From a virus (taxonomy: Duplodnaviria; Caudoviricetes), in the IMG/VR virus record IMGVR_UViG_3300030372_003981, positions 1,609-65,608 of that record: DNA of 64,000 bases. One strand, written 5' to 3'. Positions 6,579 to 32,247 of the stretch are shown one piece after another (the first letter of the stretch is position 1; each line of letters opens with the position of its first letter). The position numbers and the translations under genes were made by a program. The notes beneath the pieces were generated by a model that searched no databases, was not told the DNA's origin, and saw only the letters and a program-made list of their open reading frames with translations.

Positions 6579-6749
6579 ATGAAAAAACCAAACAATCCTG
6601 GATTAAAAAAATTACCAGAAGATGTAAGAAACAAAATGGGCTACATGAAGGGTGGTGGAAAAATCAAAAAGAAAAAAAAGAAATACATGAGTGGTGGAAA
6701 GATGTATGAATATGGACATGGAGGCAATATACTAAAACAACACGATTAA
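6579..6749 (+). CDS. Small basic protein (56 aa, not in ORF track), ends HGGNILKQHD
   Basis: ATG 6579 to TAA 6747-6749, coupled to the next ATG; three YxxGG motifs. Confidence 0.75.
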   Translation: MKKPNNPGLKKLPEDVRNKMGYMKGGGKIKKKKKKYMSGGKMYEYGHGGNILKQHD

Positions 6750-7111
6750 TGTATACATACAAAGCAAAGCTAGATAGGGTGATTGACGGAGACACTATAG
6801 ATGTAAATATAGATTTGGGATTTGATATCTCTGTTCATAAAAGAGTTAGATTAGCGGGTATTGATTCCCCAGAGTCTAGAACAAGAGATTTAGAAGAAAA
6901 GAAAAGAGGACTTGCCTCTAAAGCTAGATTAATAGAGCTTTTAGACAAAGGTGATTTGGTGGTGGAAAGTAAAGAGGTGGGCAAGTATGGTAGAGTTTTA
7001 GGGGTTTTACATATACACCCTGAAGACAATTTACCTTTTAATATTAACAACACTCTTGTTGAAGAAGGTTATGCTGTTGAATATTGGGGGGGTAAAAAAA
7101 AGAAAAAATGA
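6749..7111 (+). CDS. Thermonuclease (staphylococcal nuclease-like)
   Basis: RVIDGDTIDV, VRLAGIDSPESRT and GKYGRVLG SNase motifs. Confidence 0.9.
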   Translation: MYTYKAKLDRVIDGDTIDVNIDLGFDISVHKRVRLAGIDSPESRTRDLEEKKRGLASKARLIELLDKGDLVVESKEVGKYGRVLGVLHIHPEDNLPFNINNTLVEEGYAVEYWGGKKKKK

Positions 7112-7323
7112 TGAACATATTTAAAGACGATAATAACTGGAACGAAAAGTCTATAATAGGCTTTGTGGCTTTTGCGATTATGGTTTTAATTATGATAGCT
7201 GATTTAGTAACAGGGTGGGTGGGCAAAGACCTAGTTATTAATAAGTTTGTATATGACTCCTTTGTGTGGGTGGTTCTTGGAAGTTTCGGAATTAGTGGAG
7301 TTGAAAAATTCGCAAAAAAATGA
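7108..7323 (+). CDS. Small two-TM membrane protein (holin-like)
   Basis: Two hydrophobic segments in 71 aa. Confidence 0.55.
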   Translation: MMNIFKDDNNWNEKSIIGFVAFAIMVLIMIADLVTGWVGKDLVINKFVYDSFVWVVLGSFGISGVEKFAKK

Positions 7324-7601
7324 AAGAAATATCAGAAGAGTCCAAGTTTGAGGTTAGCTTAAAAACATTAGGCGGAATATCAGTTTTAATTTTTGCTTTT
7401 GTGGGCATGTGGTTTACACTACAAGCTGATATAGCTGAAGCAAAAGAACTTCCAATTCCACCAGACCCTGAGGTAACCCAGATGGAGTTTAAAATGAAAG
7501 ACGAATATATTAGAGCTTCGATTTTAAAAACAGAAGAGGACGTTAAAGAAATAAAAGACGACATTAAATATCTTAGAGAAAAGATGGATAATATGAATTA
7601 A
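7320..7601 (+). CDS. Single-TM protein with C-terminal coiled coil
   Basis: Hydrophobic segment LGGISVLIFAFVGMWF, then a heptad-like charged tail. Confidence 0.55.
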   Translation: MKEISEESKFEVSLKTLGGISVLIFAFVGMWFTLQADIAEAKELPIPPDPEVTQMEFKMKDEYIRASILKTEEDVKEIKDDIKYLREKMDNMN

Positions 7602-7602
7602 C

Positions 7603-7992
7603 ATGAATATAGCAAACCACATATTAATATTATTAGGTATTCTATTTTTTATAGCAGGTGCCGCTCTTGGGCAAGACTTTGTGAGCTCTGATAATTTTAA
7701 TAAAACAATAGCAAAAGATGTTGTAGTTGTAGAGTTTTGGGTAGACTGGAATTCTTCTAATGAATTTGCAGAATTAAGTAAACTTAAAGAGTGCGAAAAG
7801 TATAGAGTAGATATTGGTAAATGTAATAAAGTGCAAAAAGAATATAATATATCTGCTGTGCCTACAGTTTTAGTTTTTGAAAACGGAAAAGAAAAAGAAA
7901 GGTTTAACCCAAATATAATGTTTCAGTTAGATGCTGATAAAAAAACAATTCAAAACTCTGTTGATACACTTATATTAAATAAATTTCAATAA
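7603..7992 (+). CDS. Exported thioredoxin-fold protein lacking CxxC
   Basis: Signal peptide; VVVEFWVDWNSSN at the WCxxC position; YNISAVPTVLVFENGKE cis-Pro motif. Confidence 0.75.
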   Translation: MNIANHILILLGILFFIAGAALGQDFVSSDNFNKTIAKDVVVVEFWVDWNSSNEFAELSKLKECEKYRVDIGKCNKVQKEYNISAVPTVLVFENGKEKERFNPNIMFQLDADKKTIQNSVDTLILNKFQ

Positions 7993-8501
7993 TGTCACAA
8001 GATTTACAAACATATTCAGCACAAAAGATAAAGATACAAGCACTTAGAGGTGATTTTTTTCAATTAACAATTAATGTAAAAACTAGCTCTGGGGCAAATT
8101 ATGATTTTTCAAACGATTCAAATAATGCAAGTCAGTTTGATAATGCATATTTTACTGTAACAGATTCCAATGGTAATCCACCCTTAATGTATACTCAACA
8201 AGATGTAGAGGGGTCTACTGGTAATATAGTAAACTTTTCTGCAACCATAACACAAGATGGAAAAATATCAATAGAGTCTTCTAATGATACTGGATTTTGG
8301 CCTGCTGTTGGAAAATATAAATATTCTTTATTTACAGAAAAAGTTGGAGACAATGGTAGCACTAGTCCCTCTCAGCTTACTACGTGGATTTATGGAGAAT
8401 TTATTGTAAAAGAAAGCAATCCTGCCTTTAGTTATTTGGGTGGAATCCCAATTGATGATGACGGCAATCCATTTGTTGCTGGTGGTGGGGTGACATATTA
8501 A
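7992..8501 (+). CDS. BppU-like Ig-fold tail adaptor protein
   Basis: RGDFFQLTINVK...YDFS...GKYKYSL...WIYGEFIVK pattern. Confidence 0.5.
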   Translation: MSQDLQTYSAQKIKIQALRGDFFQLTINVKTSSGANYDFSNDSNNASQFDNAYFTVTDSNGNPPLMYTQQDVEGSTGNIVNFSATITQDGKISIESSNDTGFWPAVGKYKYSLFTEKVGDNGSTSPSQLTTWIYGEFIVKESNPAFSYLGGIPIDDDGNPFVAGGGVTY

Positions 8502-8524
8502 AATGTGTAATAAAATTTTGCAAG

Positions 8525-11500
8525 ATGAAGTCTAATAGTATACGTACATATTGGGCCAAGGATATAACGATTGAAGCTATTTATGGGAGTAAATTTGAAT
8601 TTACCTTAAATGTAAAAAATAAAGACGGTTCTAATTATAATTTTCCTACAGGCCATGTGGCATTCTTTGGTGTTTACAAGGAAGAGTATTTTTTTAATTT
8701 TGGAGAACCATTACATCAAAACCAATCAGGCTCACCTAGTTTTTATATATTTAACACAACCATAGAAGATGGTAAAATAAGTGTTACTGCACATGACGAG
8801 CAACTAGACTTAAATGCTCTTTTAGCAGTTCCAGGGCAATATAAACACGTTTTATTTACTTATGACCCAGAAGATGCTGGGGCAGGATTCTTAGAAATAT
8901 CTTCAGCAGAAGAAAACCCAAATGCTTATTTAAGAGTTGGGTATCAACATCCAGAATCAACTATAGTTCATACCGTTGAGCCAACAACATTAAATGGCGT
9001 GGGTTATTATCACGAATGGTATCTCTTGCCAGGAGATGACGAGGTTAATGCTTATTGCACCATAGGAGCTCCCACCCCTATACAAGCAAATATGTATGAG
9101 GGTCAAACGTCTCAACAATATTTATTGTCATATCCTTTTAATTATTCTTTCTATTCAGACAGTGAAGGTATGTGGCATAATGACCACTGGATTCATAAAC
9201 AGGCAATGCCACAATTAGAAACGATTATTGGTATACAACAAAAAAATGTAGTTAAATGTTTATGGCCAGTAGAACCAGGAGAAGACACTAATACAATTTG
9301 GGACCAACATGCTGTTACGGTTCCAAGTGGTTCTATCCCTATTGCTCCTTCGGTTTTAGATGGCTATATGGCCACCCCCAATACGCCTTTTATACCTGGA
9401 ATGAACCTTGTTGGATATGACATGAGTGGCCCCGTGTATTATGTTCAGCCTGCTGCACCACAATCCATTACTTATTTTACTGGAGGTGAAGACACGTATT
9501 TTGGGGTTGACGATGATGGCAATCAAATTGTTGTGATATCTGGTCAACAGTTTGATTATGATTTTTGGGTTAATCTTCCTAATAGTTTTACAATGACTCT
9601 TCTTGGCAAGAGGTCCGATGATATATATGTGAAATTTCCTCAAGGAACACCACATTCTTTAACCTCATCAGCTGAGATATGGGGTCTTAACTCTGAAGAA
9701 ATAACAACTAACCTTCAGGAGTATGTTGAAAACAACTCTTTGGCAAACGGTATATATGATGGATTAAGTTCTATTGTTCCTTGGGGTCCAGAGGTAGACT
9801 ATATTAATGTTCCTTCGGTTGATTTTTGGAATTTGTTTTGGCTACAAACTGTGGCGACATTGTCACCTCAAGAAGCAGAAAATGCTGGTGTAGAAATTTC
9901 ATATCCAGCAGGTAATTATACAGGTGTTGCTGATGGCCTTTTAAATGCTTTAATAAACGGCTCGCCAACTAATTTTGTTAACCCTACAGATTTAGATTAT
10001 TATGGACAAAATTCTGTTTTTTATGGTTTTGTTTCAAATGATATAGACTCTCAAACTTTAAGTCTTAACTCTCCTGCAGAATATATCAATACAATGGTTT
10101 CTTATCAAGAGCCTGAAGATGCGGTTCCATACACTCAAGAGCTGTACAACGAATGGGTTTCTGAGGGACAACAGGGAGTCACGGGAAACCCATGGAATGT
10201 GGTATATACGCTTGGTTCTGAAGCTAACAATCCTGCTTATGAAACATTTTTAAATGTTACAGTAAAAGCGTCTATAGTAAATATGGGTAATGCAGACGCT
10301 TATCAAAGTGGAAATTTTACAGGTGACGGCAATTGGCCTGATGCTGTAGCTCAAGGAAACTCAACAACTGTTAGATATGGAATAGAATATCTTGACACAG
10401 GAGAAACAATAGTAGAGCAGAAAGAAGTTTTTTTTGAACCCTTGTATAATGTTTCTATTAATCCTTTTTTTATTGGTCAAAGTGCTGGTGCACAAGGCGC
10501 TGGTGCTGTTGAAGAAATAATAAACGATTACCCAGATGTTTATTCTCCAATATATTACACAACTGGAGTTATTCTCAGTGCTGACCCTCAGGCGGCGGCA
10601 GAACAAACATTGCCTCTTGCCCCAGGAACAATTCTTAATTCTGATTTGCCAAGAAACTTTGAAACAGTATTAGAATTTAACAATATACTTTCTCAAGTTC
10701 AGCCAAACTCAAAAGTAAAACTTTTCTTTTCAGTGGGTAATTTAGTTAACACTTTTCCATATTTAACAAGACAGTGGCAAGAAACAATTTATGGAACTGA
10801 GGTTGTTTCCTCATGGGAGACAGTTGAAAATATTGTTGAGGTTCCAGTTACAGAAACAGTTATAGAAGATGTAATATCATATGAAGAAGTATATAATAGC
10901 GCTTCTTTAAGTTGGGAGGGTGCTTTAGCTCCTGGAGAAAACAATTGGCAAAGATTTATAGATATACCTGTTAATGAAGGAGACACTGATGTTTTGGTGG
11001 CAGGATATTTTAAAACACAAAATAGTAGTACTGATACTGAATTTGGAGATTATTGGGATGGAGAAACCTTAACATATCAAACAGGAATGAATAATATGTA
11101 TATAGGTTATACCGTTAGAGTTAAACAATATACATGGATTAGGTTACTTCAGGTTAGCGGCACTTCAACTAATCAACCGTCTTATGCTGATGATGAAATA
11201 TTTTTTCTAGATAGTTTAAGTGATTATACTGATGAACCTGGTAATGTTGGGGTTCCACTTAGCCAAACAACTAGTTGGATTCCTTTTCGTATAATTGCTC
11301 ACAACCTTACTACTGGAGAAGAGGCAGAGTGTCCATGTGAACAAGGAGACTCTCAAGATGAATTTATACCTATTTATCAGGTGCGACATAGAAGCGGATA
11401 TGCTCAAAATTCTCCTTATCGTGCAGTGGAATCAACTAACAATAATGTAAGAATTGACTTGTATGAGCTACCTGAAGGTTTTTTAAATCATAATGACGAA

Positions 11501-13567: not shown

Positions 13568-13568
13568 A

Positions 13569-13898
13569 ATGGCAAAAACACCAGCATGGCAAAGAAAAGA
13601 AGGTAAGAACCCTAGTGGTGGGTTAAACAAAAAAGGAGTTGCTTCTTATAGAAGAGCAAATCCTGGTTCTAAACTTAAAACAGCTGTAACCACCAAACCT
13701 TCTAAATTAAAGAAAGGAAGTAAGTCTGCTAAAAGACGTAAATCTTTTTGTGCCAGAATGAAAGGTATGAAAAAAAGACGTACTAGCGCAAAAACAGCAA
13801 GAGACCCAAATTCAAGAATAAACAAATCTCTCCGTAAATGGAATTGCAATACAGGTTGTAGAGTTCCAATGAGAAAAGTTGGAGAACAACACGATTAA
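13569..13898 (+). CDS. Basic protein of a marine-phage family (DUF6321-like)
   Basis: KNPSGGLNKKG...RRKSFCARM...SLRKWNC; extra tail ending EQHD. Confidence 0.7.
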   Translation: MAKTPAWQRKEGKNPSGGLNKKGVASYRRANPGSKLKTAVTTKPSKLKKGSKSAKRRKSFCARMKGMKKRRTSAKTARDPNSRINKSLRKWNCNTGCRVPMRKVGEQHD

Positions 13899-13900: not shown

Positions 13901-14086
13901 ATGGCAAAAAAAGATGCATGTTATCATAAGGTAAAAGCTAGATATAAAGTCTGGCCATCTGCATATGCAAGTGGTGCGTTAGCTAAATGTAGAAAAAAAG
14001 GTGCTAAAAACTGGGGCACAGGTGGTAAAAAGAAAATGACACATGGCGGTAAAATTTGCTGTTTAATAAAGTATCAAAAGGACTAA
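13901..14086 (+). CDS. Small basic marine-phage protein
   Basis: KDACYHKVKARYKVWPSAYASGAL..CRK; tail ending YQKD. Confidence 0.7.
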   Translation: MAKKDACYHKVKARYKVWPSAYASGALAKCRKKGAKNWGTGGKKKMTHGGKICCLIKYQKD

Positions 14087-14355
14087 TGGCTGTACGTAAA
14101 ACAAAAAAAGGTTTAGCTCTTAAACGGTGGTTTAAGGAGGACTGGAGAACTCCTTCTGGCAAGAAAGATTATAAAAGCGGAGAAAGTACTTTTCGCCCCA
14201 CTAAAAAGGTTTCAAAAAAAACCCCTACAACATGGTCGCAATTAAGTCCAGCTGAAAAGGCTGCTGCAAAAAAAGAAAAAAAAAGAAAAGGTAGAGTTAG
14301 TAGGTATAAAAAGAAAAAGAAAAAAGAATACGGCGGAATAATTCAATATGATTAA
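14086..14355 (+). CDS. Small basic protein (DUF5872-like)
   Basis: LKRWFKEDW...FRPTKKVSKKTPTT; TAATG-coupled start; tail ending IQYD. Confidence 0.65.
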   Translation: MAVRKTKKGLALKRWFKEDWRTPSGKKDYKSGESTFRPTKKVSKKTPTTWSQLSPAEKAAAKKEKKRKGRVSRYKKKKKKEYGGIIQYD

Positions 14356-14358: not shown

Positions 14359-14637
14359 ATGGCAAGAAATTCATTAGCTGGTAAAAGAACAGGGAAGTCT
14401 AAAACTGCAAAGTTTTATGCAAAGAATCCAAAATCTAGAAACAAGAAAAAAAAGTATGATACAGAATATCATAGTACAACTAACAGAAAGCGTTACCGCG
14501 CATCACTAAACAAGTTTAATAAAAATAACCCAAATAGCAAAAAAGGTGATGGTAAAGATGCTTCTCATAACTTAAACGGTTCATTAACTTTAGAGATTCA
14601 AAGACGCAATAGAGCTCGAAATAGAAGCAAAAAGTAG
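14359..14637 (+). CDS. Basic protein with degenerate HNH-like segment
   Basis: KGDGKDASH...RNRARN. Confidence 0.5.
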   Translation: MARNSLAGKRTGKSKTAKFYAKNPKSRNKKKKYDTEYHSTTNRKRYRASLNKFNKNNPNSKKGDGKDASHNLNGSLTLEIQRRNRARNRSKK

Positions 14638-15115: not shown

Positions 15116-16395
15116 AAAAAGTAGATGAAATGAAAAAATTCCTATTGGACAATCCCGATAGGTTAAATTCAAAATACGCAGATACTGCGAAAATGTTCGG
15201 AACAAACTATGAACAAGTAAGAAGTCTTGCTAGACAAATAAGAGGCTCACACACTAATAATAGGAGTGCTAAAAAAGAAAGGTTACACATGGAAGAGGGT
15301 CCTGAAGGGAAGTTTATAGTGTCGGAGGACAGCACAAGAATACAGTCACTAGATGATTTACTAGAAGCGTTTAGTGTAGATGATAGTGAATGGGAAGTAG
15401 ATTGGTATGATATAGGAACCTATGAACAAACTGGTTTTGATAAAGATAGAAATCCTATTACTACAACTATGTATCGTTGTAAAGCTAAGCTTAAAAAGGT
15501 TGACCCCTTCAAAAACTTAGAGATAACCAGAAGGTCTTTAATGGAAGACTTAAAAGATATGTCTACGTACAAGCCTAAGATTAACACAAAGCTACAAGGC
15601 CAAGACACTACCGCGCATTGTCTAGAGATTGGAGCATATGATTTACATCTAGGAAAGATAGGTATAATAGGTGATGAGTATTCAATGGATATTGCTCAGG
15701 ATAGATTGTTATCTGCTATACAACATTTATTAAAGAGGGCATCTGGGTTTACTATTGACCAGATTTTATTTGTGGTTGGTAATGATTTTTTAAATACTGA
15801 TGGTGACAAGCCTATTCCTAGAACTACTAAGGGTACTCCTCAGTTTAATAGTGACCACCATATTGAAATGTATAAGCGTGGTAGAAAATTAATTTGTATG
15901 GCTATAGATGAATTAGCTAGTATATGTCCTGTTCATGTAGTTGTTATGCCTGGTAACCATGATGAGGAATGTATAATGTACCTAGGAGATGCATTAGAGC
16001 TGTTCTACGAGAAGAACGAGTCTGTTACTATAGATAACACTAGACCATTAATGAAAGGCTTTAAATACGGAAATAATTTAATTGCCTTTGACCACGGCCA
16101 TAAGATGAAAGCTGATAAGGCTGTGCAGATTTTACCTCAAAGGTTTAGAGAAGTGTGGAGTGATGTTAGATATGTTGAGTTACATAGAGGGCACCTGCAT
16201 GGTGTGCACCATAAAAAAATAGGTGCCACTAGCGAACTTAGTGGTATTACTGTTAGAAATCTAGGAAGCATGTCGGCTACTGACCAATGGCATGATGATA
16301 AAGGGTATATAGGAAATGTTAAAAGAGCACATGGTTTTATATGGTCTAAGTATAATGGTCTTCAAGCTGAATTGTTTTACAATGTTCCTATATAA
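15112..16395 (+). CDS. Calcineurin-like metallophosphoesterase with N-terminal HTH-like region
   Basis: DLHLG, GNDFLNTD, PGNHD, DHGH, HRGHLH motifs. Confidence 0.85.
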   Translation: MKKVDEMKKFLLDNPDRLNSKYADTAKMFGTNYEQVRSLARQIRGSHTNNRSAKKERLHMEEGPEGKFIVSEDSTRIQSLDDLLEAFSVDDSEWEVDWYDIGTYEQTGFDKDRNPITTTMYRCKAKLKKVDPFKNLEITRRSLMEDLKDMSTYKPKINTKLQGQDTTAHCLEIGAYDLHLGKIGIIGDEYSMDIAQDRLLSAIQHLLKRASGFTIDQILFVVGNDFLNTDGDKPIPRTTKGTPQFNSDHHIEMYKRGRKLICMAIDELASICPVHVVVMPGNHDEECIMYLGDALELFYEKNESVTIDNTRPLMKGFKYGNNLIAFDHGHKMKADKAVQILPQRFREVWSDVRYVELHRGHLHGVHHKKIGATSELSGITVRNLGSMSATDQWHDDKGYIGNVKRAHGFIWSKYNGLQAELFYNVPI

Positions 16396-17174: not shown

Positions 17175-17420
17175 TCATAATAGTTTTAAGTGATTGTCTT
17201 TTACCAACTGATTAAAGTCTTTACTAGACTCAGCCTTATTGTGGCATAGTCTACAAAGTGCCGCGAGGTTTTCAATAAAATCTTTTTGTTTGCTGCCGCC
17301 CATTCCACGGGGGTCAATATGATGGATGTCTACCGCCCTACTCCCGCATGTGGTGCATGGAATGTAGTCATCTTTTATATACCCAAAGTGTTGCATATAT
17401 ATTTTAGTATGTTTCTTCAC
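17175..17420 (-). CDS. HNH endonuclease
   Basis: CTTCG..VDIHHI...NLAALCRLCHNK. Confidence 0.85.
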   Translation of the reverse strand: MKKHTKIYMQHFGYIKDDYIPCTTCGSRAVDIHHIDPRGMGGSKQKDFIENLAALCRLCHNKAESSKDFNQLVKDNHLKLL

Positions 17421-17776
17421 GACCTATGTTCAGTAAAATCACCAGAGGTAATTAAATTATCTGTTTTGGTTTCGTTAAAGTAAAGCCACGCGTTGTATAT
17501 CTTACCGCTCAAAGTTTCTATAGGAACCTTCTTGCGTTTATACCACGACGGGTGACCTTCCAACATATCTAAGTTAAAAAGAATTTTTGGTTTTACCAAA
17601 TATAATTCCCCATATATCTGTGAAACTTGCTCATTCTCAGACACATAGGGAATTCCATTCGCATACATAGCGTAGTTGTTTACTGTTCTTGCAACATCAA
17701 TAAACTCACAATCTACAATCAATCTGTGATTATGATATCCCATTCTTAATGTGCCATATACAAAAATAATCTCCAC
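17417..17776 (-). CDS. Gamma-glutamylcyclotransferase (AIG2-like)
   Basis: IFVYGTLRMGYHNH, GELY, LDMLEG motifs. Confidence 0.9.
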   Translation of the reverse strand: MEIIFVYGTLRMGYHNHRLIVDCEFIDVARTVNNYAMYANGIPYVSENEQVSQIYGELYLVKPKILFNLDMLEGHPSWYKRKKVPIETLSGKIYNAWLYFNETKTDNLITSGDFTEHRS

Positions 17777-23467: not shown

Positions 23468-24718
23468 TTAATTGAATCGTTCCTCACGCTTATCATAATA
23501 GTCTGCTATGTTATCCCCTTCTATACCCAAGCTTGCAACTAATACTTCACGTATCGATATGCATATAGCTGGGTCTTCTTGGAATCTATTATAGGTTTCT
23601 ATTATGGTTCTTGAATGATTTTCGACGAAGTTAACAAAACTCATGCAAAACAATACCCACTTTCTTATTTTATTATAATCAAGTGAGCCACTATGTTGTC
23701 TAAACTCTATAGTATTACCCCTATCTTTATAACTAAAGTTATTTAGATTGAGCCATTTATATCGTGTAGATGAATAGTGTCCATTTGGATTTCTTGACTT
23801 TTTACAATTATTTTTATTAAATCCTGATGAAGTGTTAGCAATATATTTTGAAAGCAACCTTAACATTCTTTTATATGTGAAGGGAAATTCTTTTTTATTA
23901 ATTGTTCTTAATTCCCTATATTTGTCAGGTATTACTTTACAATATGTATTACTTCTTCTTGACTTAGGTTGAATTCTAAATAATTGTGTTTGCATCATTT
24001 GTCCTAGCATAATAGATAGTATAGCAAATCTTCTATTGAAGTTAGCTCCACCTATATGAACATGAACACCACAAGTTTTATCAACATAACATGCTTTATT
24101 AAGAGCATCACATATGTTTTCTACTTCAACCATACCTTTATTACCCTGAAGAATACCTGTTACATATTCCATCCCGTCAATACTTCCATCAGAAACACAT
24201 TTAAGATTATATTTAGATGTATATTCTAAATACCCATCACATGTTTCCATTTCTACACCAAATGTATATGGCATTCCATATGTTTTGGTGAACATGGTGT
24301 CTTTGGTTCTTGCTGTGCAGTCCCACTCCTCTTTTTCATCAAACTCATCTTCTGGAATCCAATCTTGACGATTGTCGCTCCACCTATACCCTACATCTTC
24401 TGCCACACAACCGTCTTCAAAATATCTATCAGAATACTCTGAATACTCATATCCGCAGTCTTGATGAATAAAACCTTCTCCACCACTACTAAGTTCAACC
24501 CAAACCATGTCGTCCTCAAAATAATAAACTTGATTTTGATTACACCAAGATATACTATTAGAATCAAGGTCTTCTTGATAATAATATTCATCATTTGATT
24601 CACATAGTATAGCCTCATCTCTTTGGCAATATTCTCCATTTTGTAATAAAACACAATCCTCTTCATACTGCTCTTCGCCGTGCATGTCAATAACATAACC
24701 TTCTTTTAATTCTTCCAT
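23468..24718 (-). CDS. Putative amidoligase (COOH-NH2 ligase, Amidoligase_2-like) with acidic Cys/Tyr-repeat N-terminus
   Basis: FGVEMET, DGSI.GMEYVT, CGVHVHIG, TIEFRQHSG. Confidence 0.85.
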   Translation of the reverse strand: MEELKEGYVIDMHGEEQYEEDCVLLQNGEYCQRDEAILCESNDEYYYQEDLDSNSISWCNQNQVYYFEDDMVWVELSSGGEGFIHQDCGYEYSEYSDRYFEDGCVAEDVGYRWSDNRQDWIPEDEFDEKEEWDCTARTKDTMFTKTYGMPYTFGVEMETCDGYLEYTSKYNLKCVSDGSIDGMEYVTGILQGNKGMVEVENICDALNKACYVDKTCGVHVHIGGANFNRRFAILSIMLGQMMQTQLFRIQPKSRRSNTYCKVIPDKYRELRTINKKEFPFTYKRMLRLLSKYIANTSSGFNKNNCKKSRNPNGHYSSTRYKWLNLNNFSYKDRGNTIEFRQHSGSLDYNKIRKWVLFCMSFVNFVENHSRTIIETYNRFQEDPAICISIREVLVASLGIEGDNIADYYDKREERFN

Positions 24719-24729
24719 AATTTAAAGTT

Positions 24730-25662
24730 TTAGTATGAATAATAAATTTCTTGAGCTACATTAGACAATAATTCTTGAGCGTCCTGCAGGGCATCTATTT
24801 CATCTTTGTTTAAATTGTGATGAAACGATATTTCCTGTAATTTGGCCGCAACAGACTCAAGTTTATCTGCTTTAGCATAGTCTTCTTCTTCCTCTGTGTC
24901 CCAATCATAATTGTCATCCCATAAGTTGGATTGATTGTAAATGCTTGAGTGTGAGGGTGTTGAGTGGTGACTATAATTGTTATATGAACGCCAATCAGTA
25001 TTTATATTTACCTTTGAAGGAATTGGTTTGTTTTTAATATTAATAGTATTTATTAATTCGCCATTTTCCCATACGAATAGTTTATCTTTTTTGCACTCTT
25101 TTACTTTTTCGTCTTTGCCTGCTATATTTTCAAGGCCTTCTTTGAGTGAACTAAAATAAACACCTTCATCCTTTTTTAAATAAAATAATGGATTGTTATG
25201 TCTATATACATATAATTTATTGTCATTTGCAGTAAACAGCACAGCTTTTGTACCACCAAATAATCCTAAGTTATTGGGGTCTTCTGTGTCACCTAATACT
25301 TTAATAATCATTTCAGAATCAACAGTTGTTTTCTTTATATTAAACTTATTGCCAACTTCTATATAATTATTTAACACACCATTATGAGCACCAATTATCT
25401 TTTTGTGCTGAAATGGATGTGCGTTCTCAACAGTATTTTTACCGTGAGTTCCATATCTTGTGTGCCCTATAAGAACACTGCCTGTGTCATTTGACTCAAG
25501 CATTGGCAATATATTCATAGACTCATCTAATGTCTTATATATTTTACCATTTACGAACATTCCTGTAGAGTGGCCACCTCTGGAATCGTTGTCCGCTAAT
25601 AAATGTAAAGCCTTTAACACACTTGTGTTTGCTTTACCTGAAAAGCCTACTAATCCACACAT
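24730..25662 (-). CDS. Class II glutamine amidotransferase (Ntn hydrolase)
   Basis: MCGLVG start at 25662; SRGGHSTG, GHTRYGT, NAHPF, AHNG, VDSE. Confidence 0.9.
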   Translation of the reverse strand: MCGLVGFSGKANTSVLKALHLLADNDSRGGHSTGMFVNGKIYKTLDESMNILPMLESNDTGSVLIGHTRYGTHGKNTVENAHPFQHKKIIGAHNGVLNNYIEVGNKFNIKKTTVDSEMIIKVLGDTEDPNNLGLFGGTKAVLFTANDNKLYVYRHNNPLFYLKKDEGVYFSSLKEGLENIAGKDEKVKECKKDKLFVWENGELINTINIKNKPIPSKVNINTDWRSYNNYSHHSTPSHSSIYNQSNLWDDNYDWDTEEEEDYAKADKLESVAAKLQEISFHHNLNKDEIDALQDAQELLSNVAQEIYYSY

Positions 25663-25747
25663 ATTTATATTTTTTTCATTGTTAATTAATTCATGGTATT
25701 CATCTATTGCATCGAAGGGTATACCATTTACCCCTTCATCCCAAACC

Positions 25748-26230
25748 CTACTCATGTTTTGGTAAGTTTTCGGTTGCTATTACAAGTCTTTCTACTTGGT
25801 CTTTTGTTATATTAGCTCTTAAGTTTCCACAACTTAAAAGGTTTTCTATAACCCAAACTATTTTCTCTACTCTAGTATCTATATCTGTTCCTTTATCTAA
25901 TTGAATATAGGTTTCTATTGTTTCAAATTTCTTTTTAATTTCTACTTCTGAGTATGATTGACCGCTAGTAAGGTATGTTGGTGTTTGGTCGGTTTTTAAA
26001 AAGTGCTCTAATGTTTCAAATAAAGTTTGTTTTGTAATATTTAAATCAACTCTCACTCTTTTTCTTGGTGCTGAGTCTATAATGAACGCTTTACTACTTT
26101 CTAAATCCTCAAGCTTATAAGATTCTTCTTTGATTTGTTTTTTATTATACAAGGGTACAATATTGCTATTATTTAGATACTCACCCAAGGCTTCTCTAAT
26201 AATATTATAATTAAGTTTATGTTTTGCCAT
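25748..26230 (-). CDS. Hypothetical early protein
   Basis: 160-aa ORF with A-rich start context. Confidence 0.6.
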   Translation of the reverse strand: MAKHKLNYNIIREALGEYLNNSNIVPLYNKKQIKEESYKLEDLESSKAFIIDSAPRKRVRVDLNITKQTLFETLEHFLKTDQTPTYLTSGQSYSEVEIKKKFETIETYIQLDKGTDIDTRVEKIVWVIENLLSCGNLRANITKDQVERLVIATENLPKHE

Positions 26231-26660: not shown

Positions 26661-26782
26661 TGCATATATGCATAGGAATTACCGCGCATGATGATAGTGA
26701 TTGCTTTGGGGCAGAGGCTAATGAACAGCCTGTCGCCTTGCGACGTAATTGTATATATAAACTGTTGCGTTAGCAACTCCAT
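26661..26782 (-). ncRNA. Candidate structured RNA (multi-hairpin junction)
   Basis: Three perfect 5-bp stems plus a 6-bp closing stem in a locally GC-rich stretch. Confidence 0.45.
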
Positions 26783-26785
26783 TGT

Positions 26786-26819
26786 AAAAAAAAAGGGTAC
26801 ATACCGAAGTACATACCCT
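26786..26819 (-). terminator. Rho-independent terminator
   Basis: GGGTATGTAC-TTCG-GTATGTACCC (two G-U pairs, cUUCGg loop) then T9, just after the stop at 26830. Confidence 0.9.
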
Positions 26820-26829
26820 AATACACATA

Positions 26830-27372
26830 TTATATGTCGTTTGATAACACATCAATCTTTTCATCGTAGTATTTCCAATCAACATAATTAAGCTTGTTAC
26901 CTCGCTTGTATTGTGCAAATCGAAACTCTTTACCACCAGATAAGTGCTTGTCAAACTCAGACAAAGTAAGTCCATTATCTTCAATCATAGAATACAAAGC
27001 TTTACCACGAAGTAAGTCTGTACCGTTTTTATGATTTTCAATAAATTCTTTAGTCAAAGATTCTAATGTGCAACCTCTAAACAAGACTGTAGAATATCTG
27101 ATTCTTTTGTCTGTGCTATCAGTGTGCTTTAGATTCATTGCAAAAGCTGGAACTTCTTCTGTTACATATTTATCGTCACGCTTGGTGTTGATAAGTAATG
27201 TAATATCTGCACAATCAAAAGCTTTTGGAGCTTCACCTCCAAGCATAGTGTAGTTAAGTGCAGGTTTGATAGTGAATAAAGTTCCTGTGAACTTGCCTTG
27301 AGATTTAACAGGCTGTGTTACTGAACAGCTATCAATATCTTTAACAGCTGTACCAAATGATTTTAAATTCAT
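26830..27372 (-). CDS. Hypothetical early protein
   Basis: 180-aa ORF with its own terminator. Confidence 0.7.
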   Translation of the reverse strand: MNLKSFGTAVKDIDSCSVTQPVKSQGKFTGTLFTIKPALNYTMLGGEAPKAFDCADITLLINTKRDDKYVTEEVPAFAMNLKHTDSTDKRIRYSTVLFRGCTLESLTKEFIENHKNGTDLLRGKALYSMIEDNGLTLSEFDKHLSGGKEFRFAQYKRGNKLNYVDWKYYDEKIDVLSNDI

Positions 27373-27437
27373 AATAAATAAAATTGTGTACTCGTTTAAT
27401 AATGGGTGAGTACATTACCCGATAAAGAAAAGAACAA

Positions 27438-27545
27438 TTACTTGTCCAATATGTCTTGATTAAAGTCCCATAGTAATAACATTTCTTCTTGCGTTATTAC
27501 ATCCCGTGAGACAGCATCTTGTAAATAGTCAAAATAAGTATACAT
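27438..27545 (-). CDS. Micro-ORF, 35 aa (MYTYFDYLQDAVSRDVITQEEMLLLWDFNQDILDK)
   Basis: Preceded by the same TAACCTTTAAT leader as the 27719 ORF. Confidence 0.55.
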   Translation of the reverse strand: MYTYFDYLQDAVSRDVITQEEMLLLWDFNQDILDK

Positions 27546-27566
27546 AACATAATAGATAATTAAAGG

Positions 27567-27719
27567 TTAAAAAATAAGTAGCCACAAGCTGATGAACACG
27601 ATGTATATAGCGTTGATACAAAGTACTACACGAAACACTCGTGGGTGGTGATAACAAGTATGAAACACAATAGACACGACAATGCCTATCAATGTAAAGA
27701 ATAAGTATTTAAGTAACAT
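27567..27719 (-). CDS. Small two-TM early membrane protein (50 aa)
   Basis: MLLKYLFFTLIGIVVSIVF...; internal ATG at 27719. Confidence 0.55.
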   Translation of the reverse strand: MLLKYLFFTLIGIVVSIVFHTCYHHPRVFRVVLCINAIYIVFISLWLLIF

Positions 27720-27890
27720 AATAAATAGATTAAAGGTTAGATAATAAATAGTATAGATTGTAAGGTTGCTACGCATAATGCTGAATTTTCACTCACAAAG
27801 TATAACACATTACAGAAAAGAACAAACTGATGTAAAACATATTAATCGCTCAAAGAATACAACGTGTGTATAAATATACTAACGAAGCAC

Positions 27891-27921
27891 TTGACAATGT
27901 CATTTATTTTTCGTACCTTGG
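27891..27921 (+). promoter_or_regulatory. Host-type promoter with overlapping palindrome
   Basis: TTG(ACA)-20 nt-TACCTTGG; TGACA-A-TGTCA palindrome at 27892-27902. Confidence 0.55.
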
Positions 27922-28258
27922 GCGGGAGTGGGACAAAGACTGTACAGCACTAGAACATATCACCTAAATAGTAAGACCACAACACAACAACAAAACACTG
28001 TACAGAATAGTGATAGTGAATAACATGGAATAACCTATGTCACTCTCTCACAGTCACATTAATTTTTTATTGTTAGAAAAGTACTGTACTAGCACTCAAG
28101 AACAACCGAAAGGTTTTCCTGAGGCGTCTGTGTGCAATTTTTCTACCTTAAATTAATCTTTTATAAACTAGGCACGGGGGTTTTAAATTTTGACAAGGGG
28201 GTAGGCATATAAGGAATAAGGTTCACACACTTGAAAATATATAAAAAAAATTTTTTCG

Positions 28259-28266
28259 TATGTTTG
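28259..28266 (+). promoter_or_regulatory. Bacteroidota -7 element (TATGTTTG) at the start of the late block
   Basis: Exact TAnnTTTG with ATG 5 nt downstream. Confidence 0.65.
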
Positions 28267-28271
28267 CATAC

Positions 28272-28409
28272 ATGCAGGTACTATTTAGTTTTCATTGGGG
28301 TTTTGTGTTAGGTATACGACATTACGAGCCTGACGACAATCATCCATATACTGAGGCACATTTTTTTCTAGGCCCAGTGTGTATAACATTAACAGATAAA
28401 GAGGTATAA
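28272..28409 (+). CDS. Small protein, 45 aa (MQVLFSFHWGFVLGIRHYEPDDNHPYTEAHFFLGPVCITLTDKEV), not in track
   Basis: Starts 5 nt after the -7 element and ends 1 nt before the next ATG. Confidence 0.65.
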   Translation: MQVLFSFHWGFVLGIRHYEPDDNHPYTEAHFFLGPVCITLTDKEV

Positions 28410-28410
28410 T

Positions 28411-28788
28411 ATGTGGGGTCATATAGAGAGAAGTAACAATAAGATGGTATATGCAAGAAGTGTTAGTGATGTTGCTGATGACAACGATGCTGCTCGTTCA
28501 GTTTGTTTTCCTGTTTCTGCAATAAGGGGTTTTATTTTTAGTACTAGTGGTAATATTATTCTTAGGTATGAGAGCCCTTATCAATTTGCCATGGAAGATA
28601 ATGGTAACTGTGACGGCTTAATACTATCTTTAACAGTATCTGGCACTCATAAAACGTTTATTGAAAATTTTGCAAGAGAAATAGCCTTTGGGGACAGTTA
28701 TTTTATCACATTGTGTGATAATGTTACTAGTGAGGCTTTTACAGGAATTAATGGTGTTGGTATTACATCTGATACAGGAGCTGATTAA
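28411..28788 (+). CDS. Paralog family C protein
   Basis: MVYAR...FPVSAIRG...FITLCDNV pattern. Confidence 0.65.
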   Translation: MWGHIERSNNKMVYARSVSDVADDNDAARSVCFPVSAIRGFIFSTSGNIILRYESPYQFAMEDNGNCDGLILSLTVSGTHKTFIENFAREIAFGDSYFITLCDNVTSEAFTGINGVGITSDTGAD

Positions 28789-29123
28789 TGGAAAAGTTTT
28801 TTTACATAGGAGATATAAGTGCCTCTAATATAGGGTTGTCTTATCCAGTTGAAAGTTGGAGGGGCGCTCACCCGTCTTCTGACACAGTGTTGAACATATA
28901 CTTCACTCCTGTAGACGAAGGAGGTTTAGCGTCTGATAAAGATAATGATGTTATACACCTAACTCTTAGCTCTGCTAATAAACATAAAGATGTTATGGAG
29001 TCTATCGTTGAAGCAATGAATACAAGTGATGAGCACGTTATTAATATTATTGATATTGATAATAGCTTAAAAATAAACGATTATATATCTAGTGTTTCTG
29101 TTACAATGAGTAGTGATGTATAA
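28788..29123 (+). CDS. Paralog family C protein
   Basis: KFFYI...YPVESWRG..LNIYF...VMESIV. Confidence 0.7.
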   Translation: MEKFFYIGDISASNIGLSYPVESWRGAHPSSDTVLNIYFTPVDEGGLASDKDNDVIHLTLSSANKHKDVMESIVEAMNTSDEHVINIIDIDNSLKINDYISSVSVTMSSDV

Positions 29124-29156
29124 TTTTTACAAAAAAACGCTTCGCGTTTAATTTAG

Positions 29157-29164
29157 TATATTTG
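29157..29164 (+). promoter_or_regulatory. -7 element with ATG 4 nt downstream
   Basis: TATATTTG-caca-ATG(29169). Confidence 0.65.
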
Positions 29165-29168
29165 CACA

Positions 29169-29471
29169 ATGGACAGGTACGTATTGTTTGTAAACACTTC
29201 AGCAGATTATTTAGGTTTTCCTTTGAAAGCTTACATAGGACTTATATATGCCTCTGCAACAACTATAGATTTATATTTTGAAAAGTCTCCCTTATCTTAT
29301 AAGGTTACCTTAACTATAGAAACAGGGACAGGTGTTCAAGTTGCAAAAAAGATACAAGAGCTTTTTAGTAAATATACAGGCTCGCAAATATTGTTTGATG
29401 AGGTAGAAAGTAAATTTCCAATATCAGAGGTTACAGCTATTTCTTCATTTACAAAAGTTATAATAAAATGA
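29169..29471 (+). CDS. Paralog family C protein
   Basis: YLGFPL...IDLYFEK..VTLTI.TG. Confidence 0.65.
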   Translation: MDRYVLFVNTSADYLGFPLKAYIGLIYASATTIDLYFEKSPLSYKVTLTIETGTGVQVAKKIQELFSKYTGSQILFDEVESKFPISEVTAISSFTKVIIK

Positions 29472-30115
29472 TATATCACGTTACATTTAGTCATGGAGCT
29501 AATATAAACTTAGGAAGATGCACTATATCTTCTGCCACTGACACAACTATTACAAGCTATTGGGGTTCTGGAGAAGATTTTTATCAAAACTTTACAAACT
29601 TAAAGATAGTGCCAGGTCAAATTTTATACATGCTGTCTCCATCTTCTAAAAGGGTGCGACTAGGAAGAATATCTGCAGTGACATCTACAGTGATAACTCT
29701 AGCGTCAAACCCTGGAGTCTATGCATATGAGCAAATACAAAAACATGGCTTTTTAGAACTATACGTGGAACAAGAGAAGTCTCTATATTCATATCCTCAA
29801 TCAAGATACTGTGGAGCCTCTTTATCAAAACAGGGCGGCTATTATAAAGAATATGATTCTTCTACTTCTATAGAATCTGAGGTTACAGCAACTGAAACAA
29901 ACTCCTTAATAACACTATATTTTGAAAAGGGAAACACTTTTGATGAGGTGAGAGTAGAGGTTTATCATGGTAAAGAATCAGAAGCAATAAACGCAATTAA
30001 CAATATTTTAACAAATCAAAAAAATATTAGTTTTTCTACATCATTACAGTCTGAGGACAGTAAAATAATAGGAATAAATTCTATAGTGTCTAATGTTGCA
30101 AAAGACAACTACTAG
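29468..30115 (+). CDS. Family C domain carrying an inserted beta-rich domain
   Basis: SYPQSRYCG...ITLYFEKG shared with the 29169 ORF. Confidence 0.55.
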   Translation: MIYHVTFSHGANINLGRCTISSATDTTITSYWGSGEDFYQNFTNLKIVPGQILYMLSPSSKRVRLGRISAVTSTVITLASNPGVYAYEQIQKHGFLELYVEQEKSLYSYPQSRYCGASLSKQGGYYKEYDSSTSIESEVTATETNSLITLYFEKGNTFDEVRVEVYHGKESEAINAINNILTNQKNISFSTSLQSEDSKIIGINSIVSNVAKDNY

Positions 30116-30133
30116 TATATTGTTATTTTTTTA

Positions 30134-30141
30134 TATCTTTG
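30134..30141 (+). promoter_or_regulatory. -7 element with ATG 4 nt downstream
   Basis: TATCTTTG-gggt-ATG(30146). Confidence 0.65.
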
Positions 30142-30145
30142 GGGT

Positions 30146-30445
30146 ATGATTAGAGAAAAAACTTCTTTTGGTGTAATTCATAAAAATTTAATGGGTGAAG
30201 AGTACCATGTTAGTTTTTCAAAAGAATATTATAACGTTGTTAAAAAGGAAGATGATATAGTTATGTATCTTATTGACAATGACTATGAGATATTAGACAA
30301 ATCTATTTATTACGTAGGAGGGAGTGTTCATAAAGGTGTTGACACATACTATAATGATGAAAATGAATCCTTATATATAGAACCATACGAATATGTAGAA
30401 TACGGAGTATGGAAAACTAAGTTTAAAATTAAAAAGAAAAAATAA
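30146..30445 (+). CDS. Hypothetical protein
   Basis: 99 aa, Tyr-rich. Confidence 0.6.
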   Translation: MIREKTSFGVIHKNLMGEEYHVSFSKEYYNVVKKEDDIVMYLIDNDYEILDKSIYYVGGSVHKGVDTYYNDENESLYIEPYEYVEYGVWKTKFKIKKKK

Positions 30446-30909
30446 TGCCACAATTAACAGTAACCACAAGAGAAAACATAATTATAAATGGCAGACAACA
30501 GGGTTCATCTAGAGTGATGACCTTTAATAATATTGTTGATGTTTATAGTAGAGTGTTTTCTTTTAAACAACAAACATTAACGTCCTTATATACCACTCAT
30601 GCAGACACAGTTTCTGCTGGTGTATTTGATGACGGAAGCGTTAAATATGTAAGAATAACTAGTTTAGGTAAAGAACCTATAGTAATAAACGTTTTAGGAG
30701 AAAATAACATTTCTTTTGCATATGAAATAAAACAAAATCAAAACTTTTATTTATATGGACATTCATTGGTAATAGAAGCTGATGATTCTGACGCAATAAC
30801 AACAGCTGATATGACATCTTTAGAAGACATTGATGAAGTAAAAGCTTATTGTCACAAAGGAGCTGCAAGAGTTGAAGTTTTTGTAGCAAGTTCTGAAGCA
30901 GCAAAATAA
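30445..30909 (+). CDS. Virion accessory protein, paralog family A
   Basis: VKYVRITSL; DIDEVKAY...VEVFVAS. Confidence 0.6.
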   Translation: MPQLTVTTRENIIINGRQQGSSRVMTFNNIVDVYSRVFSFKQQTLTSLYTTHADTVSAGVFDDGSVKYVRITSLGKEPIVINVLGENNISFAYEIKQNQNFYLYGHSLVIEADDSDAITTADMTSLEDIDEVKAYCHKGAARVEVFVASSEAAK

Positions 30910-30915
30910 TAACAT

Positions 30916-31386
30916 ATGGCAACATTAAAGGTAAACATATCAGAAGAATGCAATGTAGAAGGCATATCTTATAGTGGAACTAGAACAAAAGTTATAACAG
31001 GTGTTACCACGGTATTTAAACATATTGTTAATGTAACTACCACAGAAGGTGTTATCTTGACCTTCACTGATGCTGGCGGAGATATAGCCACTTTAGATAG
31101 AGACACTGTACAGTATTTAAGAATTACTAACTTAGATGAAAATAATTTTGTAATGATATCTCTTAAAGATGGTACTGCTGCAGTTGCTGCATTTAGATTA
31201 GACGCTGGAAGCACTCTTATTGTCCCAACACCAAATACAATTACTGAACATCCACAATTTTTTGTAGATGATGACAGCGCTACTAGTGGTGCTGGTGCTA
31301 CTATGTTAGATATAGATACTATTACAGCAGATGCAGATACTTCTGCTTGTAATATAGAGATATATTGTGCAATGAATAATAGCTAA
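30916..31386 (+). CDS. Virion accessory protein, paralog family A
   Basis: VQYLRITNLD; DIDTITAD...IEIYCA. Confidence 0.6.
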   Translation: MATLKVNISEECNVEGISYSGTRTKVITGVTTVFKHIVNVTTTEGVILTFTDAGGDIATLDRDTVQYLRITNLDENNFVMISLKDGTAAVAAFRLDAGSTLIVPTPNTITEHPQFFVDDDSATSGAGATMLDIDTITADADTSACNIEIYCAMNNS

Positions 31387-31387
31387 T

Positions 31388-31915
31388 ATGTATTTATTAC
31401 AGTTGAGCAAAAAGGGGGATATTGTAGAGACAGACGATGGTTTGTTTGCTATAAGTGAGTTTAAGGGTTTGGTAGATGATTTAGGAATAAAAGCTATGTT
31501 ATGGGTGGCTTTGGTTTGTGATTATGATAGCCCATATAGACATTTTGTAGAAAGAGAAAGAGTTAAGTCTGTAAGTAAAGCAGTATTTGACAAGTATGAG
31601 TGGAAAGGAATACAAAATAAAAAAATTGCTAGCGCAATTAACAAATATAAAGAACTTCAGTTCGACCCATTAGATGCTCAATTAGTTGCATTTAATGAAA
31701 AGATTGACGAATACACTCGTTTAATGAGAGATACAAGGATAAACGAGGACAATGCCGAAAGTATGCAAAAGATAATGATAGGTATTGAAAAAGTTCTAAA
31801 CACTAGGCAGAAACTTTTAGATGCTATTGAAAGAAGGGGTAGCAGGCAAAAAATAAAAGGGGAAGCAAAAATGAGTTATTTAGAAGAACAAATGAGTATT
31901 AAAGATAAAATTTAA
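31388..31915 (+). CDS. Conserved helical protein upstream of TerL (possible small terminase)
   Basis: DYDSPY motif and coiled coil; position upstream of terL as in crAss-like genomes. Confidence 0.45.
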   Translation: MYLLQLSKKGDIVETDDGLFAISEFKGLVDDLGIKAMLWVALVCDYDSPYRHFVERERVKSVSKAVFDKYEWKGIQNKKIASAINKYKELQFDPLDAQLVAFNEKIDEYTRLMRDTRINEDNAESMQKIMIGIEKVLNTRQKLLDAIERRGSRQKIKGEAKMSYLEEQMSIKDKI

Positions 31916-31919
31916 AATT

Positions 31920-32069
31920 ATGCCAGACAAAAAGGAAAATGTAGGAGAAACAGCTCCCGATACTAAAATGGTGGACGTGGCAACACCTCCTAAGAAAAAG
32001 AAAAAAATGGGACCTGGATATAAGCATGGTGGACGTGTTAGAGACACGTTTAAGGAACAATACGATTAA
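31920..32069 (+). CDS. Small protein, 49 aa, ending YKHGGRVRDTFKEQYD (not in track)
   Basis: ATG 31920 to TAA 32067-32069. Confidence 0.65.
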   Translation: MPDKKENVGETAPDTKMVDVATPPKKKKKMGPGYKHGGRVRDTFKEQYD

Positions 32070-32070
32070 T

Positions 32071-32247
32071 ATGAAAAAAATAAAAATAGGGAACAAAAAG
32101 TTTGTAGTTGATGGCGACACTTATATGGAAGAAAGTGCGTACAAAAACTATATAAAGAAAAAAGAAACCGCTTTTAATATTGGAGGAAGCTTAAGTAACG
32201 TTAAGTCGGAAGAACCTAAATATAAAGAGCATGGGCAAAACGATTAA
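32071..32247 (+). CDS. Small basic protein ending HGQND
   Basis: Internal ATG 32071; FNIGG motif; overlaps the terL start. Confidence 0.55.
   Translation: MKKIKIGNKKFVVDGDTYMEESAYKNYIKKKETAFNIGGSLSNVKSEEPKYKEHGQND

Follow-up and report, generated by a model that had tools for sequence, protein, structure and literature searches.

A strictly C-terminal Q-x-D motif appended to polycationic proteins of marine crAss-like phages, a candidate label for loading the capsid

A 64,000-nucleotide stretch of viral DNA (IMG/VR record IMGVR_UViG_3300030372_003981, positions 1,609–65,608; hereafter the window) carries six small genes whose products share a C-terminal peptide that ends in Q-x-D, referred to here as the tag. 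The window covers almost the whole of a 65.6 kb phage contig, whose G+C content is 34%. Pfam scans identified a crAss-type major capsid protein (PF23898, 2e-32) and a muzzle protein of 2,335 amino acids (aa; PF25731, 1e-117), and ring proteins 1 and 2 are also encoded (PF24228 and PF25702 matched). The genome is thus Crassvirales-like, with crAss-type major capsid, muzzle and ring proteins all present. The window TerL is ~28% identical to those of gut crAss phages, and the closest cultured relatives, the Flavobacterium FpV4 group, reach a capsid identity of only ~25%; these sequence comparisons therefore place the phage among uncultured marine relatives of Crassvirales. The plus strand carries the late genes (1–16.4 kb and from 28.4 kb to the contig end), the minus strand the early and replication genes (16.4–27.8 kb).

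A first-pass annotation of the window had listed six open reading frames (ORFs) with related endings, and all six are present with those endings:

6579–6749, plus strand: lysine-rich protein of the R-N-K-M-G-Y family, 56 aa, isoelectric point (pI) 10.1; the tag is the last 12 residues (6711–6746), ending K-Q-H-D-stop.
13569–13898, plus strand: DUF6321 protein, 109 aa, pI 11.7; conserved core to residue 93, then a 16-residue appended tail (13848–13895) ending E-Q-H-D-stop.
13901–14086, plus strand: protein like the N-terminal half of DUF5872, 61 aa, pI 10.1; tag at 14039–14083, H-G-G-K-I-C-C-L-I-K-Y-Q-K-D-stop.
14086–14355, plus strand: protein like the C-terminal half of DUF5872, 89 aa, pI 10.5; near-canonical tag at 14326–14352, E-Y-G-G-I-I-Q-Y-D-stop.
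31920–32069, plus strand: basic protein, 49 aa, between a terS-like gene and terL; long-form tag at 32019–32066, G-G-R-V-R-D-T-F-K-E-Q-Y-D-stop.
32071–32247, plus strand: protein of 58 aa directly upstream of terL, with a 17-nt overlap; it carries the islands F-x-[IV]-G-G-x-L and G-Q-x-D-stop.

The pI values of the six proteins range from 9.2 to 11.7. The product of 13569–13898 belongs to DUF6321 (PF19846), which it matches over profile positions 1–72 of 72 with 69.3 bits, against a gathering cut-off of 28.5. DUF5872 (PF19197) is split in two genes in the window, with a separate tag on each half: the 14086–14355 product matches profile positions 48–113 only (40.6 bits, cut-off 27.5), and the 13901–14086 product matches positions 12–39 below the cut-off (15.2 bits, cut-off 27.5) and is covered by PHROG 727 and 3477. 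The 6579–6749 protein has three [YF]xxGG motifs. The gene that follows it (6749–7111), whose start overlaps the stop of the tagged gene, encodes a staphylococcal-nuclease homologue (PF00565) that ends in Y-W-G-G and five lysines and is found in only 2 of 10 relatives.

Long forms of the tag, with 6–20 variable residues between the G-G island and the Q-x-D end, occur on the 31920, 13901 and 32071 proteins. The tail of the 31920 protein is kept as G-G-[KR]-[IV]-R-[DN]-x-F-x-x-Q-Y-D in contigs L001, L005 and L026. The 32071–32247 instance had been rated weaker in the first pass because it overlaps the terL start, a reservation that does not hold: both of its islands, separated by a variable spacer (region 32173–32244), are kept in 12 orthologues, which retain ...G-Q-[KR]-D-stop and some of which end ahead of the terL start.

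Terminal Q-x-D-stop is found on 6 ORFs in the window, compared with ~0.2 expected from composition (Poisson P ~1e-7), and internal Q-x-D is at expectation (47 observed, 41 expected). Related IMG/VR contigs, about 150 in number, have TerL proteins 64–93% identical to that of the window. A first TerL search yielded 80 loci (66–93% identity), and a further search, which started from a TerL with 66% identity to that of the window, yielded a sister subclade of 76 loci. Eleven complete or near-complete tag-bearing genomes of the clade, the window genome among them, were compared and hold between 1 and 9 tagged genes each. In the 80 first-search loci, Q-x-D-ending ORFs number 98 on the coding strand and 1 on the other strand. 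The canonical heptapeptide is terminal in 73 distinct occurrences and internal in none, counted in any open frame of the fetched loci.

The canonical consensus in relatives is [YF]-[KS]-x-G-G-x-[ILV]-Q-[HY]-D-stop, most often Y-K-x-G-G-x-I-Q-H-D. Across 80 distinct proteins with this form, Tyr or Phe occupies position −10, Lys or Ser −9, Gly −7 and −6, Ile, Val or Met −4, Gln −3, His (70 of 80) or Tyr −2, and Asp −1. At least one tag occurs in 66 of the 76 sister-subclade loci, where the forms are G-G-K-F-Y-K-Q-H-D, G-G-S-Y-R-Q-L-D or R-S-F-Y-R-Q-L-D, with up to four in tandem. Because the sister-subclade tags include forms without G-G, this element is common yet dispensable; tags such as ...R-Y-T-Q-H-D and ...F-R-Q-L-D in some relatives lack it. 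Of the shared GG...Q-x-D tag described in the first pass, the Q-x-D end is therefore shared and the G-G is not obligatory. The constant core is a hydrophobic or aromatic residue, Gln at −3 and Asp (rarely Asn) at −1. Variant endings in Q-H-N-stop, and once in Q-H-S-stop (G002 15487–15969; G008 8573–8902 and 9548–9865; L082 8001–8318), are natural substitutions that could reveal how far the last residue is tolerant of change.

Selection on the tag acts at the protein level, as the first-pass annotation had proposed. Synonymous codons vary at every tag position, with four Gly and three Ile codons in use, CAA and CAG at 52 : 19, CAC and CAT at 36 : 25, and GAT and GAC at 37 : 34. All three stop codons are used (TAA 50, TAG 20, TGA 1), the DNA downstream of the tags is not conserved, and an ATG within 12 nt is lacking for 26 of the 71 tags. 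The string CAANNNGAYTAA occurs exactly 6 times in the window, always on the plus strand and always as the in-frame end of a tagged ORF; there is thus no out-of-frame copy that the motif might be tracking. A DNA-level motif was rejected on these codon and frame data.

The tag is also restricted to one clade. A strict DNA pattern for G-G-x-I-Q-H-D-stop matched 55 stretches in IMG/VR, mostly from this clade and often two or three per contig. The same pattern in 596 Gb of prokaryote genomes gave only 51 scattered single matches, which is chance level; 8 of the 51 end an ORF, with unrelated pI values, and none of these resembles the phage carriers. Tag endings are absent from the cultured crAss-like phages FpV4 and crAss001. 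A Mesohalobacter contig (L253) was considered as a clade phage and rejected, having no TerL homologue and no tagged ORF. No published description of the motif was found among the papers searched, in which the sole mention of DUF5872 is an entry in a list of genes. Another lineage-specific C-terminal motif (...N-Y-K-x-G-[QE]), seen on long polycationic proteins from other phages, was set aside because two related examples only were found, which is insufficient.

The bodies that carry the tag are unrelated, as first surmised: 134 distinct tagged proteins fall into 49 unrelated body groups. Most tagged proteins are of low complexity and rich in lysine; their median length is 89 aa and their median pI 10.4, and 93% of them have a pI above 9.5, compared with 15% of untagged genes. 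In other phages, DUF6321 homologues (more than 70) terminate at ...W-N-C-stop, and the window protein and its close relatives run 11–16 residues beyond W-N-C to end in Q-x-D. Homologues of both DUF5872 halves and of the R-N-K-M-G-Y family in other phages likewise end before the tail. Since homologues of the same bodies stop before it, the tail is appended, which bears out the earlier impression. The tag is thus a real short linear motif of the C-terminus, one that has been added to diverse polycationic proteins across a large family of marine crAss-like phages.

An AlphaFold2 model of the 13569–13898 DUF6321 protein, moderate overall (mean predicted local distance difference test score, pLDDT, 69.6), has a helical core with pLDDT of about 70–88 and a tail (residues 97–109) with pLDDT below 50. 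The tail is therefore predicted to be disordered, as expected of a docking peptide. Foldseek returned no PDB match for the model, and the ESM Atlas gave nothing for DUF6321 beyond its name. Within the core (13569–13847), ~60 of 93 positions are near-invariant, with 60–95% identity across phages of cyanobacteria, SAR11, OM43 and Bacteroidota; such conservation is unusual for a small basic phage protein of unknown function.

Untagged DUF6321 homologues tie the family to virion and packaging genes. DUF6321 occurs in 508 phage records, from cyanomyoviruses, pelagiphages and OM43 phages, at 60–90% identity to the window copy. Among the genes adjoining it in 77 other phage loci (n = 119) are 15 portal, 9 adaptor, 5 terminase, 10 capsid and 19 Cpn10 genes. 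In Prochlorococcus phage P-HM1, the DUF6321 gene lies between gp16 (terS) and gp17 (terL). ORF29 of Synechococcus phage S-SCSM1, a 517-aa protein encoded three genes upstream of terL, joins a module like the 13901 protein (77% identical) to a DUF6321 module (67% identical), and its depositors labelled it "virion protein" in GenBank. Mass spectrometry of CsCl-purified S-SCSM1 virions detected 45 proteins, 13 of them of unknown function (PMC9602691). The link between ORF29 and the virion comes from the GenBank label, since the list of detected proteins appears in a figure only (PMC9602691).

Tag-carrier modules are also found fused into proteins of 340–700 aa in other phages. A 707-aa polyprotein-like chain (L100 680–2803, on IMG/VR contig 3300029319_001586) strings together DUF6321, a module like the 14359–14637 protein of the window, an R-N-K-M-G-Y module and M-Y-G-G-K-M repeats, separated by x-x-G-G. 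The linker that follows DUF6321 in this chain is similar to the first half of the tail on the DUF6321 proteins of the clade.

The genomic setting points in the same direction as the untagged homologues. In two more distant subclades, all tagged genes stand in a tandem array directly upstream of a 175-aa terS-like gene and terL. In the subclade of the window, two tagged genes lie between the terS-like gene and terL, and further tagged genes lie in the late block near a holin-like gene. Three proteins encoded nearby or further along the late region bear on how the tag might be read:

31388–31915, plus strand: candidate small terminase (terS-like), 175 aa; found in 11 of 11 genomes and directly upstream of terL in other subclades.
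36371–37402, plus strand: scaffold-like protein, 343 aa, between the portal and major capsid genes, with a very acidic N-terminal half.
50729–52222, plus strand: protein of 497 aa just after the muzzle gene, where crAss001 encodes its cargo C1; glycine-zipper segments are present and a Q-x-D end is absent.

The 175-aa protein has no Pfam or PHROG match and is a terS-like candidate by position. A role as scaffold for the 36371–37402 product is suggested by position and composition, and this acidic protein is a candidate receptor for the polycationic tagged proteins. It has G-F-D-P-x-x-F-M near both ends; the C-terminal copy is conserved in all relatives examined and is possibly its capsid-binding element. 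TerL itself ends in ...G-G-R-L-V-P-Y-K-D-D, which is not a tag. Mimicry of the TerL tail was considered and rejected: in relatives the last TerL residue is free and there is no Q-x-D, and TerL tails differ between subclades while the tags are constant.

The 497-aa protein has glycine-zipper and tape-measure-like matches. It also holds 6 internal copies of [YF]xxGGx[IV], the first half of the tag, against 0.25 expected, and the excess is kept in its orthologues (6, 4, 3 and 2 copies, against ~0.2 expected). Its positional counterpart in crAss001, gp45, has a weak excess of [YF]xxGG (3 against 0.9 expected). Cargo C1 of crAss001 lies inside the virion, in capsid and tail (PMC10172136). Next to the 497-aa gene in the window, 52224–54194 encodes a 656-aa protein with an N-terminal GH108 lysozyme-like domain, found in 11 of 11 genomes; a role as an ejected cell-wall hydrolase is probable.

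A core of 17 window genes recurs, as homologues, in each of the ten other tag-bearing genomes, and by our own assignment 12 of these 17 are virion or packaging genes. They include genes for the terS-like protein, TerL, portal, acidic scaffold-like protein, capsid, two ring proteins, two small neighbours of the ring genes and the muzzle, together with the GH108-bearing cargo-like protein and a giant ORF (two entries: 56043 to the contig end, and a 564-aa ORF upstream of the window). The remaining core genes comprise three for replication and one metallophosphoesterase-like gene. The giant ORF (56043–64000) is an open frame of more than 2,652 aa that runs past the contig end and has no Pfam match; its position is that at which crAss phages encode giant cargo proteins of the virion RNA polymerase type. 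The 564-aa ORF at the contig start (G000 8–1701, immediately ahead of the window) may continue this frame if the genome is circularly permuted. Stop-codon recoding, considered for a 56–64 kb region that seemed free of ORFs, was ruled out by the presence of this single long frame.

The first-pass annotation had suggested that the tag is a capsid-targeting, protease or modification signal. Capsid targeting fits the indirect evidence, because untagged homologues adjoin head and packaging genes, S-SCSM1 ORF29 carries a virion label, tagged genes form arrays upstream of terS-like and terL genes, and 12 of 17 core genes are virion or packaging genes. The other two parts are less well supported, with no protease domain among ~55 proteins scanned and five tag-bearing genomes without an amidoligase. 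From this indirect evidence we infer a function as a head-loading label. It is tentatively proposed, with confidence that approaches but does not reach an even chance, that the tag is a C-terminal docking peptide that loads polycationic proteins into the capsid.

In the proposed mechanism, a disordered polycationic body would be followed by a flexible tail that ends in a hydrophobic or aromatic residue, Gln at −3, a variable residue (usually His or Tyr) and Asp at −1, often preceded by [YF]-x-x-G-G. The last residues of the tag and the free carboxylate would dock into a pocket of a conserved morphogenesis protein of the clade, for which the acidic scaffold-like protein, the inner face of the crAss-type capsid protein and the portal are candidates. 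The small basic proteins would thereby enter the procapsid ahead of the DNA, and once loaded they might subsequently serve to neutralise or organise the packaged DNA, or accompany it on ejection. As to history, DUF6321 and DUF5872 would have been modules of the head or packaging block in other marine phages, often fused in one long protein; the clade would have taken up modules of this type as separate small genes and added its local label to each. A broader and more doubtful extension is that the decapeptide is a portable encapsidation code, such that any protein ending in it would be loaded and foreign head-internal modules would become usable upon acquiring the label.

Several observations weigh against head loading. 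Large presumed cargo proteins (497, 656, 615 and >2,652 aa) lack a Q-x-D ending, and because of this the label is not a general cargo code. A small basic protein of the window, encoded at 14359–14637, is likewise untagged, and three tagged genes adjoin the holin-like gene, outside the head block. DUF6321 is extremely conserved among phages that infect cyanobacteria, SAR11 and Bacteroidota; this suggests a universal target, not necessarily one within the capsid. S-SCSM1 ORF29 is an untagged, fused homologue from a T4-like phage, and very basic proteins can adhere to purified virions. Finally, TerL identity to any cultured relative is at most about 28%.

Ordered by likelihood, the rival explanations begin with docking on the packaging motor, followed by a processing or turnover signal and then a host target. 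The adjacency of tagged genes to the terS-like and terL genes, the location of DUF6321 between terS and terL in T4-like cyanophages and the presence of the terS-like protein, TerL and portal within the 17-gene core would all suit a tag that docks basic proteins on the packaging machine (the terS-like protein, TerL or the outer portal face) and not in the empty procapsid; there they would act as DNA-bending or DNA-condensing helpers during packaging, or be threaded in with the DNA. Partner-binding C-terminal tails are usual in terminase small subunits, such as those of P22 and lambda. This is nevertheless unlikely: TerL tails vary among subclades and the tag is constant, a set of 1–9 carriers with unrelated disordered bodies fits passengers better than a defined motor accessory, and four of the six tagged genes in the window lie 18–25 kb away from terL. 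That the tail is a processing site, cut by a protease at or after G-G, or a degron, either of which might curb the toxicity or timing of DNA-binding polycations, is improbable even though G-G precedes the end in most tags and x-x-G-G punctuates the same modules in the 707-aa chain of another phage. Pfam scans of ~55 window proteins, in which small ORFs were not covered exhaustively, found no protease domain, and there is none in the 17-gene core; several tags lack G-G, and one G-G falls within the conserved DUF6321 core, an unlikely place for cleavage. A cleavage site alone would also leave the invariant terminal Gln and Asp and the strict terminal position unexplained, and degrons of the ssrA type are hydrophobic, unlike a Q-x-D ending. 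Quite improbable, too, is imitation or binding of a host protein that recognises C-terminal peptides, such as a cell-division or chaperone hub, by proteins acting as host-directed effectors. The 60–90% identity of DUF6321 across phages of very different hosts would suggest a universal cellular target, and the FtsZ of a flavobacterial genome has a C-terminus loosely like the tag, with an aromatic residue and then ...N-V-D. However, the FtsZ likeness is weak and its spacing differs, the tag is confined to one phage clade while its carrier families function untagged in phages of many hosts, and the strict pattern is at chance level in prokaryote genomes.

The window also encodes enzymes for which the tag might mark substrates:

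17417–17743, minus strand: GGACT (gamma-glutamyl cyclotransferase; Pfam); present in G001–G005 and absent from the sister subclade G007–G011.
23468–25755, minus strand: Amidoligase_2 and class II glutamine amidotransferase (GATase; Pfam); present in G001–G005 and absent from G007–G011.

Pup-like modification or ligation of the terminal carboxylate or Gln by these enzymes would account for the need for a free C-terminus and an invariant Gln, and the ligase is present in five relatives (G001–G005). It is absent, by family and protein search, from the five complete or near-complete genomes G007–G011, each of which has 1–4 tags, and GATase and GGACT are missing from the same genomes; the modification reading was therefore rejected and is given very little probability. 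Furthermore, the enzyme pair is common in tag-free phages, and the enzymes are encoded in the early block, the tags in late blocks. Even less credible is that the recurrence reflects chance or a DNA or RNA signal at gene ends, such as translational coupling, a terminator or part of a promoter. The next start codon does lie within 0–4 nt of many tagged genes, and 7 of 100 shuffles reach the 6 copies of CAANNNGAYTAA when it is counted as a bare string. Yet all six copies are in frame at the ends of small basic ORFs, the amino-acid motif reaches 10 residues upstream, and the codon variation, the use of three stops, the unconserved downstream DNA and the 98:1 strand ratio given above all speak against such a signal.

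A strictly terminal 10-residue label, kept in hundreds of environmental genomes, makes protein loading into the heads of crassviruses and other podovirus-like phages directly amenable to test. DUF6321 and DUF5872, present in cyanophages, pelagiphages and Bacteroidota phages, would be linked to the virion as small conserved genes movable between very different virions. If the label is transferable, it is a possible tool to pack proteins into phage capsids.

Among known systems, the internal proteins of T4 have diverse bodies that share just a capsid targeting sequence (CTS; PMC3012670). As in the clade of the window, a peptide of ~10 residues is the sole shared part of diverse, fast-changing and mostly basic head proteins (IPI, IPII, IPIII and Alt), and it is transferable in principle (PMC3012670). 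The T4 sequence differs in being N-terminal, in binding the scaffolding core and in its removal by the gp21 prohead protease. The window tag, on a crAss-like phage, is unrelated in sequence and C-terminal (73 terminal and 0 internal occurrences), and no protease gene was seen, with neither a gp21-type prohead protease nor any other peptidase family among the ~55 window proteins scanned, small ORFs not exhaustively.

Small viral core proteins offer a second comparison. Adenovirus and African swine fever virus process their core-protein precursors with proteases that cleave at x-G-G|x, and those precursors resemble the tagged proteins in being small, very basic, DNA-condensing and bound for the virion core, with G-G motifs. 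Their system is defined by a clan CE cysteine protease, of which none was found among the proteins scanned (Pfam) or in the 17-gene core, and in the clade the conserved element runs past G-G to the last residue. A Pup- or ubiquitin-like tag does not match either: the end is Q-x-D, G-G lies at least five residues from it, and the amidoligase is missing from five genomes.

The C-terminal tails of the P22 scaffold, the 80alpha scaffold and SaPI1 CpmB bind capsid protein; in those systems a short C-terminal element common to unrelated proteins inserts into the major capsid protein as the procapsid assembles. The proteins concerned are, however, helical scaffolds that depart from the capsid, with one or two in each system, whereas up to nine disordered basic carriers occur in a genome of the clade, whose own scaffold-like protein uses G-F-D-P-x-x-F-M. 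Encapsulin cargo-loading peptides dock unrelated cargo to the inner face of an HK97-fold shell, likewise by a short C-terminal peptide after a flexible linker, an arrangement that the low pLDDT of the DUF6321 tail matches. The encapsulin peptides have a hydrophobic consensus of the G-S-L/I type and bring enzyme cargo into a cellular nanocompartment without DNA packaging; the tags lack this consensus and an adjacent encapsulin shell gene, the shell being a crAss-type capsid.

The same capsid type, with the same families (PF23898, PF25731 and ring proteins), is found in crAss001, which stores proteins within its capsid and tail (PMC10172136). The [YF]xxGG half-motif of the tags recurs in the window protein at the position of crAss001 cargo C1. 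Cargo proteins C1 and C2 of crAss001 (gp45 and gp46) differ in being large, without a Q-x-D ending and with a weak [YF]xxGG excess. The crAss001 structure describes megadaltons of cargo and names no loading signal (PMC10172136). If the portable code proposed here is true, it would be the first identified loading signal for crassvirus-type capsids, and a virus counterpart of encapsulin cargo-loading peptides.

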